A stretch of 64,000 nt of DNA, taken from Escherichia coli. GTDB lineage: Bacteria; Pseudomonadota; Gammaproteobacteria; Enterobacterales; Enterobacteriaceae. This document shows positions 13,230 to 14,017 of this stretch, in pieces. How positions within the stretch are numbered: the first letter of the stretch is position 1; each line of letters opens with the position of its first letter. A model generated the notes under the pieces. The model searched no databases, had not been told where the DNA came from, and saw only the letters and a list, made by a program, of their open reading frames with translations. The translations under genes were made by a program, and so were the position numbers. The stretch lies in the NCBI RefSeq assembly GCF_003334785.1, contig NZ_QOWV01000003.1; one strand, written 5' to 3'.

Positions 13230-14017
13230 TCAGATAAAGTGCTTACGCAACCGTTGAGAGAGGAAATCCAGCAGGCTGACCGTGACGATGATAAGCACCA
13301 TCAGGGCGCAGGTTTGTTGGAACTGGAAACCGCGAATCGCTTCCCACAGGGTGACGCCGATCCCGCCTGCGCCGACCATGCCGACGACGGTCGCCGAGCG
13401 GACGTTGGATTCGAAGCGATAGAGGGAGTAGGAGATCAGCAGTGGCATCACCTGTGGCAGCACGCCGTAGAGGATCTCTTCGAGCTTGTTGGCACCGGTG
13501 GCGCGAATGCCTTCCACCGGGCCGGGTTCAATCGCTTCCACCGCTTCGGAAAGCAGCTTGGAGAGCACGCCGGTGGTGTGGATAAACAGCGCCAGCACGC
13601 CAGCACGCCAGCGAACGGGCCGAGGCCGACGGCGACCACGAACAGCATGGCGAAGACCATTTCGTTAATGGCGCGGCAGGCGTCCATCAGGCGGCGAACG
13701 GGCTGGTAAACCCACCACGGCACCAGGTTTTCGGCGCTCATCAGGCCAAAGGGGATGGAGAGAACCACCGCCAGCGCGGTGCCCCAGACGGCGATTTGCA
13801 GCGTGACGGCCATTTCGGTGAGGTAATCCTGCCACTGGCTGAAATCGGGCGGGAAGAAGTCGGCGGCGAACGTCGCCATGTTGCCGCCGTCTTTGATCAG
13901 CGTAAGCGGGGCCATTTCCGCGCCCTGCCACGAGACGACCAACACGGCGAGTACAACGGCCCAGCTCAGAAGCGAGAACCAGCTGCGCTTGGGTGGGGCG
14001 ATGGTGATGGTTTGCAT
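13230..14017 (-). pseudogene. phnE: Phosphonate ABC transporter permease PhnE, disrupted by a frameshift at an 8-bp repeat
   Basis: Two overlapping reverse ORFs (13448..14080 N-terminal part, 13230..13598 C-terminal part) in different frames; deleting one 8-bp unit at 13591..13614 restores a single reading frame. Confidence 0.88.
13591..13614. repeat. 8-bp direct repeat tract (GCCAGCAC x2 plus GCCAGCGA) responsible for the phnE frameshift
   Basis: Read directly from sequence: gccagcac gccagcac gccagcga. Confidence 0.85.

Follow-up and report, generated by a model that had tools for sequence, protein, structure and literature searches.

A cryptic, three-unit phnE allele in a K-12-like Escherichia coli and its distribution among complete genomes

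The window, i.e. the whole stretch of 64,000 nucleotides of Escherichia coli DNA that we analysed, contains the genes phnC to phnP in the canonical order phnCDEFGHIJKLMNOP on the minus strand (5131..15952). Thirteen of these 14 genes are intact, with their annotated lengths and no internal stops. Two of them lie upstream of the lesion described below: phnC, encoding the ATPase (15164..15952, minus strand), and phnD, encoding the periplasmic binding protein (14123..15139, minus strand), each free of internal stops and identical to the MG1655 protein. Downstream we find the regulator gene phnF (12484..13209, minus strand) and the C-P lyase pathway genes phnGHIJKLMNOP (5131..12483, minus strand). 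Across the 11 ORFs from phnF to phnP only two nucleotides differ from MG1655: one is synonymous (phnK) and the other changes one amino acid (phnM).

The exception is phnE (13230..14017, minus strand), the gene for the permease of the phosphonate ABC transporter. From its annotated ATG at 14017 to its stop at 13230 it measures 788 nt, a length not divisible by three, and its status as a frameshifted pseudogene is documented by the open reading frames, their translation, an in-silico repair and the RefSeq label on identical DNA. An earlier note on this DNA, made by a model from the letters and a list of open reading frames, had read the permease gene as two overlapping reverse ORFs. Both are indeed present on the minus strand (13448..14080 and 13230..13598) and they flank a tract of octamer repeats. 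The frame that opens at the native ATG (13448..14017, minus strand) encodes 140 native PhnE residues, followed by 49 out-of-frame residues and a premature stop (13448..13450). The other frame (13230..13598, minus strand) holds the orphaned C-terminal part (residues 141-259 when the protein is intact), which contains the EAA-like loop, and has a nominal GTG start inside the tract.

The tract itself occupies 13590..13612 (minus strand; ORF nucleotides 406-428, codons 136-143) and reads GCTGGCGT GCTGGCGT GCTGGCG, which amounts to three units. Tandem Repeats Finder reports one array at these positions, with a period of 8, 2.9 copies and 100% matches. Direct reading of the plus strand at 13591..13614 gives gccagcac gccagcac gccagcga, letter for letter as first described; the third 'unit' listed at the time (GCCAGCGA), however, is an artefact of the register chosen, since the true third unit is 7/8 complete. 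In functional alleles with two units the tract is GCTGGCGT-GCTGGCG, 15 nt long and encoding A-G-V-L-A.

Removing one unit in silico shortens the gene to 780 nt and yields an uninterrupted ORF of 259 aa, with the two frames fused at the junction ...GPFAGVLA| exactly as the earlier note had foreseen. Adding one unit or removing two did not restore the frame when the tract was edited in the same way. An IS element or large insertion in phnE was considered as well and is ruled out by the length difference of exactly 8 nt. The position of the repeat coincides exactly with the frame break, and the tract is the sole instance in the 64-kb window of a perfect tandem repeat with a period of 5-12 and at least 2.875 copies. 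Dinucleotide-preserving shuffles (n=100) gave a mean of 0.06 such repeats per window, with any at all in 6 of the 100.

The protein was compared with TIGR01097 (PhnE), an NCBIfam equivalog with a curated cutoff of 216.7 bits. The repaired 259-aa product scores 311.5 bits and covers profile positions 8-251 of 252. As encoded, the N-terminal fragment (positions 8-133, 127.7 bits) and the C-terminal fragment (positions 131-251, 176.5 bits) both stay under the cutoff. Given the positions that the fragments span, the damage is to the reading frame alone, with no loss of sequence. As it stands in the window, the gene belongs to the PhnE family as a pseudogene and not as a working copy. Its repaired product is identical to WP_001193500.1, the PhnE of BL21(DE3), ECONIH4, ETEC1732, Z217-2 and an MG1655 record from Sao Paulo that is discussed below.

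In ABC importers an EAA-type loop couples the permease to its ATPase. Repaired PhnE has an EAA-like segment at residues 155-188 and the Pfam domain BPD_transp_1 (PF00528) at residues 88-258 (E = 5.6e-26). Both lie largely 3' of the frameshift at residue 140, and the tract falls within a hydrophobic stretch (residues 113-153) just upstream of the EAA-like loop. As the coupling loop is lost with the truncation, the truncated PhnE should be inactive, judging from its sequence.

These observations are best explained as follows. The coding repeat normally consists of two octamers inside a transmembrane segment, and the third unit found here adds 8 nt. This addition shifts the frame after residue 140, so that translation appends the 49 wrong residues and ends at the stop. 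About 70% of the permease domain is lost in this way, and with it the EAA-like loop through which the permease is coupled to the PhnC ATPase. PhnCDE would then be unable to import phosphonates, though phnC, phnD and phnF-P are intact. The allele probably arose by slipped-strand mispairing of the direct repeats, or by unequal exchange between them, and could revert by the same routes; the loss of one unit yields the same PhnE as the functional allele of E. coli B. That slippage is the molecular route is what we infer from the variants described below, which differ by whole units in perfect copies, and from published work, which is also our source for the Phn-minus phenotype and for the selection of revertants with an 8-bp deletion.

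The one feature that could suggest a permease functioning despite the frameshift, either through ribosomal frameshifting on the repeat or through co-assembly of separately translated halves, is the existence of the C-terminal ORF with its GTG inside the tract. No Shine-Dalgarno-like sequence is visible upstream of that GTG, which is probably not used as a start, and both fragments score under the family cutoff. Moreover, K-12 carriers of the three-unit allele reportedly cannot use phosphonates unless they first lose 8 bp (PMC6469041, PMC3463581, PMC7566553). A permease working in two pieces or by recoding is therefore very improbable.

The lesion disables transport (the permease) and not the enzymes of the operon. 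In a K-12 strain with three units, transposon promoters reading into phnG-P led to a strong fosfomycin phenotype, which the authors read as activity of the catabolic genes with transport still inactive (PMC7566553). The earlier note had called the whole 14-gene operon conditionally non-functional. This is correct at the level of the phenotype only: the permease alone is lost, phnC, phnD and phnF-P are intact and phnG-P are active when transcribed. The premature stop at 13448 lies about 240 nt ahead of the phnF start at 13209, a spacing that makes a polar effect on the genes 3' of the lesion (phnF-P) possible. The 1991 work of Makino is said to have suggested a polar effect. Since the other 13 genes are intact in the window, the loss of one unit would restore the system here.

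Taken together, the phnE of the window is in its OFF form, a 'cryptic' allele of the phn(EcoK0) type, and we consider its structural explanation secure (probability roughly 0.93). It is an allele that is already known, so the finding amounts to an accurate rediscovery of the published phn(EcoK0) of K-12. The allele can be traced to Makino et al. 1991 (J Bacteriol 173:2665) and Iqbal et al. 2004 (J Bacteriol 186:6118), as these are cited in PMC6469041, PMC3463581 and PMC7566553. The forms phn(EcoK0), phn(EcoK+) and phn(EcoB) have been defined in terms of octamer gain and loss (PMC3463581), the allele with three copies has been described for K-12 (PMC7566553) and the reading as an octamer frameshift is further covered by PMC10574752.

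The published revertants agree with this identification. The genome sequence of strain RI57 (Stasi et al.) shows that 5'-GCTGGCGT is deleted at ORF positions 407-414 (PMC6469041). The same 8-bp deletion was found in five strains evolved under phosphate starvation and was ascribed to slippage between direct repeats, at a high frequency (PMC4759930). The correspondence with the cryptic phn of K-12 proposed in the earlier note is thus confirmed, in octamer, copy number, position and the loss of one octamer on reversion; revertants with an unchanged tract, which the note had named as contrary evidence, did not turn up, as RI57 and all five evolved strains change the tract. In revertants, PhnCDE additionally mediates phosphate uptake (PMC6469041), and growth is favoured under phosphate starvation (PMC4759930). 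Among the genome records, NZ_CP032679.1 (MG1655, Sao Paulo, 4,631,543 bp) has two units and, apart from this, matches MG1655 perfectly over 6.2 kb; very probably it is RI57 itself.

The window is K-12-like, but it is neither MG1655 nor W3110. Within the operon it differs from MG1655 by three SNPs (at 7480, 9246 and 13527), one of them in phnE, and the 100-bp yjdM-yjdN array has two fewer copies than in MG1655. Over its first 25 kb the window matches several poultry isolates and one donkey isolate at 100% identity. In the 2004 work of Iqbal the OFF form was reportedly regarded as unique to K-12. Given that the window is not MG1655 and matches poultry and donkey isolates, the allele is not specific to K-12 but a property of a natural K-12-like lineage. 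For the same reason (the window is not K-12 itself) the Phn phenotype of this strain is extrapolated from K-12.

In the literature searched we found no description of how the allele is distributed in nature. Our survey covered 5,426 complete E. coli genomes, of which 5,395 have phnE. Alleles were counted using short queries with 3, 2 or 4 units, together with a 10-unit query that sorts alleles by coverage. Three units occur in 994-1,009 records (about 1,000) and four units in 12, and single records have seven units (OkiPb01713, bovine, Okinawa) and ten units (2013C-4974, human stool, USA); about 4,380 records have two units or another form. Alleles with 5, 6, 8 or 9 units did not appear with the 10-unit coverage query in these complete genomes. 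Apparent full matches to a 1-unit query consisted of two joined pieces of three- or four-unit alleles.

All inspected alleles differ by perfect whole units (2, 3, 4, 7 or 10). RefSeq labels the inspected alleles of 788, 796, 820 and 844 nt frameshifted and those of 780 nt intact. No three-unit allele was in frame or annotated as intact, so that a functional PhnE with the same number of units, the other contrary outcome considered at the outset, was not encountered. BL21, E2348/69, ECONIH4, ETEC1732 and Z217-2 have two units, whereas MG1655, tolC- and isolate 300709 have three, identical to the window. The proposed comparison with the phnE of E. coli B also came out as expected, with two units in BL21 against three in the window and an identical protein after repair. 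The tract is a real VNTR in nature. In O157:H7 it reads GCTGGTGTGCTGGCG, with a synonymous change (GGC>GGT) inside the tract and the gene intact; this break in the repeat shows that the tract is not conserved as such.

Records with three units are mostly natural isolates in every sample listed, and their sources include human stool, human blood, dog, pig, chicken, cucumber, river, seawater and wastewater. Consequently, the OFF allele is not a laboratory peculiarity. Its lineage makes up about a fifth of the complete E. coli genomes, with humans, animals, food or water as the source of at least half of its members. A sequencing or assembly artefact in the window would have to explain why the 788-nt sequence recurs, identical or within 1%, in about 1,000 independently assembled genomes from many laboratories; a perfect 8-nt unit is also atypical of sequencing error, and we consider this explanation barely credible.

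The state of the allele is closely tied to the haplotype. On the K-12-like haplotype there are about 999 records with three units, 5 with two and 12 with four, where the 999 are records at least 99% identical to the 788-nt allele of the window. The repaired 780-nt sequence at an identity of at least 99.9% returns five records, namely two natural clone pairs and the laboratory revertant, and the next-best two-unit alleles are six SNPs away from it. Records of the window haplotype differ by 0-6 SNPs per 6.2 kb and carry two-, three- and four-unit alleles. Over these 6.2 kb the two-unit revertants and the four-unit alleles carry different private SNPs, and one four-unit group is a phnC/phnD recombinant mosaic. 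The private SNPs indicate that unit gain and unit loss each occurred more than once; natural contraction has taken place at least twice and expansion on at least four backgrounds.

Within the clone pairs ETEC1732/1734 and Z217-2/-4, and within the three SW0716x records, the tract state agrees. On backgrounds other than the K-12-like one (about 4,380 records) the long-tract ladder yields one record each with three, seven and ten units. A separate three-unit allele lies on a BL21-like background (strain 35), and the three-unit query found none in an ECONIH4-type flank. All these counts refer to the majority tract state of a culture, as this is the only state that an assembly reports. In natural populations the allele behaves for the most part as a marker inherited with one K-12-like haplotype, on which units are rarely gained or lost.

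These patterns bear on the possibility that the tract is an adaptive contingency locus, selected as a high-frequency ON/OFF switch (bet-hedging), with the window caught in the OFF phase. Such a role would be in line with the natural VNTR (2, 3, 4, 7 and 10 units) and its changes in both directions on one haplotype, and with the easy selection of revertants, the deletion being one that 'occurs with a high frequency' (PMC6469041, PMC4759930). The title of Iqbal et al. 2004, as cited in PMC6469041 and PMC3463581, claims reversible phase variation. The almost perfect association of allele state with haplotype is hard to square with a very fast reversible switch, except under selection for OFF in this lineage. 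Natural contractions to ON (two clones) do not outnumber expansions to a second OFF state (at least four backgrounds), a pattern that looks neutral. In addition, the in-frame alleles of five or eight units were not seen in the survey, the repeat is broken by the synonymous change in O157:H7, and several OFF genomes have irreversible second lesions. We therefore judge a selected switch to be improbable. The genome data agree better with an inherited allele, neutral or favoured in its OFF state and with some decay, than with a fast selected phase switch.

The second lesions deserve separate mention. A further inactivating change was present in 5 of 11 natural OFF genomes against 0 of 7 ON genomes inspected (Fisher one-sided p = 0.054, or 0.088 with the shared event counted once, in what is a small sample). 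The shared event is phnJ Q54*, common to W444 (three units) and YZ22PE244 (four units). EH10-18-47 and MSB1_1D have 1-bp deletions in phnI at two different sites, which might be assembly errors, and LR-71-1 has phnE Q105*. The phn genes are otherwise fully intact in three of five sampled natural three-unit genomes. Since the second lesions in some OFF lineages are irreversible, the term 'reactivatable' is true for the window but not for every carrier.

It might be argued from these lesions that the three-unit allele is simply a decaying pseudogene, i.e. a fixed loss of function under relaxed selection, with an eroding operon and no natural role for reactivation. The excess of lesions in OFF genomes points in this direction, as do the unrelated deletion by which phnE loses 83 bp in OkiPb01679 and the expansions to 4, 7 and 10 units, which lead further away from ON. 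Such decay is harder to reconcile with the 13 other phn genes intact in the window, with the intact natural three-unit genomes and with the natural two-unit revertants on the same haplotype. The sample is small, two of its lesions are the doubtful phnI deletions, and a haplotype with 0-6 SNPs per 6.2 kb is too young to judge decay. Plain decay is on the whole unlikely, though less so than a selected switch.

A more far-reaching reading can be given at less than even odds. It takes the tract as a species-wide VNTR and OFF as the state in which a large natural K-12-like lineage has become fixed. There, OFF would be either kept by positive selection or tolerated as neutral, with the C-P lyase genes starting to erode. 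If this is true, maintenance of OFF would mean that import by PhnCDE is costly or toxic in the niche concerned. It would also revise the usual view of the cryptic allele as specific to K-12 and make phnE a natural test case for telling a contingency locus from a slippage-prone pseudogene. On the practical side, strains with this haplotype are expected to be phosphonate-negative until one octamer is lost, and the phosphate uptake and starvation advantage of revertants can confound evolution experiments. The survey itself adds a modest point: the OFF state is widespread and linked to a haplotype, and longer OFF alleles exist, which may merit a phylogenetic count.

Among known systems, phn(EcoK0) of K-12 is the closest. 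It shares with the window the gene, the octamer GCTGGCGT, its three copies, their position and the order of the operon. The published revertant deletion at 407-414 and the tract of the window at 406-428 are equivalent within the repeat. The window differs in the three operon SNPs, in the two fewer 100-bp copies and in having its best 25-kb matches in poultry and donkey isolates.

BL21(DE3) belongs to E. coli B and serves as the classical phosphonate-positive reference. Its allele, phn(EcoB), encodes a PhnE that equals that of the window residue for residue once one unit is removed, and the sequence of the two-unit tract is the same. It differs in having two units rather than three, in three synonymous changes in the flanks of the tract and at 127 sites across the surrounding 6.2 kb.

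Classical contingency loci include the tetranucleotide tracts of lic and mod in Haemophilus influenzae and the pentamer CTCTT of opa in Neisseria. Like these, phnE has a repeat within the coding sequence, a unit that is not a multiple of three, toggling of the frame by whole units and natural length polymorphism. However, those tracts comprise tens of copies, whereas phnE has an octamer in 2-3 and rarely 4-10 copies, and their targets are surface or restriction-modification functions whereas phnE encodes part of a nutrient transporter. Unlike contingency tracts, the phnE repeat is interrupted by a synonymous change in O157:H7. Finally, the states of contingency loci are scrambled among close relatives, while that of phnE is strongly bound to lineage in 5,400 genomes.

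A further inactivating lesion was found in five of the 11 natural genomes in which phnE is out of frame (OFF), against none of the seven in which it is in frame (ON); these counts refer to the inspected sets only, with p about 0.05-0.09. Two of these genomes share the same premature stop in phnJ, Q54*: W444, with three octamer units (L022:12760-13605; L numbers denote phn loci taken from other E. coli genomes, with locus-internal coordinates), and YZ22PE244, with four units (L009:7268-8109), both of which are pig isolates from China. In phnI, EH10-18-47 carries a 1-bp deletion (L006:6211-7274) and MSB1_1D a different one (L025:11703-12766), though both could be assembly errors. 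Finally, phnE of LR-71-1 itself contains the stop Q105* (L010:3636-4431). Some impression of how often assemblies of this kind contain pseudogene calls as background comes from the neighbouring genes crfC and rdcB, which are annotated with internal stops (L023:3103-5331 in strain 5270, L024:2228-3106 in PO06021) in two natural 3-unit isolates.

The octamer tract can also be considerably longer. Ten perfect units are present in phnE of strain 2013C-4974 (human stool, USA; L018:3646-4489) and seven in that of OkiPb01713 (bovine feces, Okinawa; L019:3646-4465); these natural isolates are related, and neither gene is in frame. If the 12 records with four units are included, all the longer alleles belong to a single frame class (unit number n = 1 mod 3).

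Other variants of phnE concern the sequence around or within the tract. In OkiPb01679 the gene (L020:879-1575) is inactivated by an 83-bp deletion directly upstream of a normal 2-unit tract. Two copies of CCGTTCGC apparently bound the deleted segment, a repeat-mediated lesion distinct from the octamer-tract change in the same gene. The phnE gene of O157:H7 strain 2149 (L003:1501-2280) is intact, and its tract is broken by a synonymous GGC>GGT substitution (GCTGGTGTGCTGGCG). Because of this interruption, slippage potential should be reduced in the lineage of this strain.

Three loci, L007 (EF7-18-51), L009 (YZ22PE244) and L010 (LR-71-1), are recombinant mosaics over columns 1-1500 of the phnC-phnJ alignment. 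They combine phnC and the initial portion of phnD in a form like that of BL21, the E. coli B strain with a functional phnE (over the first 1,000 columns they show no difference from BL21 and 42 differences from the window), with a sequence identical to the window's haplotype from mid-phnD on, which places a recombination breakpoint within phnD.

Adjoining the phn operon, between yjdM (phnA) and yjdN (phnB), the window contains a 100-bp tandem array of REP/BIME-like palindromes (16592..16971; 3.8 copies, 97% matches). MG1655 has two copies more than the window, and the yjdM-yjdN gap measures approximately 159, 257, 457, 559 or 657 nt across the fetched loci; given this variation, the array constitutes a second VNTR, with a 100-bp unit. 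REP-like palindromes (gccggataag...cttatccgac) also occupy the phnD-phnE spacer (14020..14120). TRF additionally detects 21-bp repeats in yjdP (4838..4920), which encodes a DDRRRQL repeat protein, and a 9-bp repeat in four copies (63218..63253) coding for the C-terminal GGM tail of a GroEL-like ORF of 548 aa; both are protein repeats that are already known.
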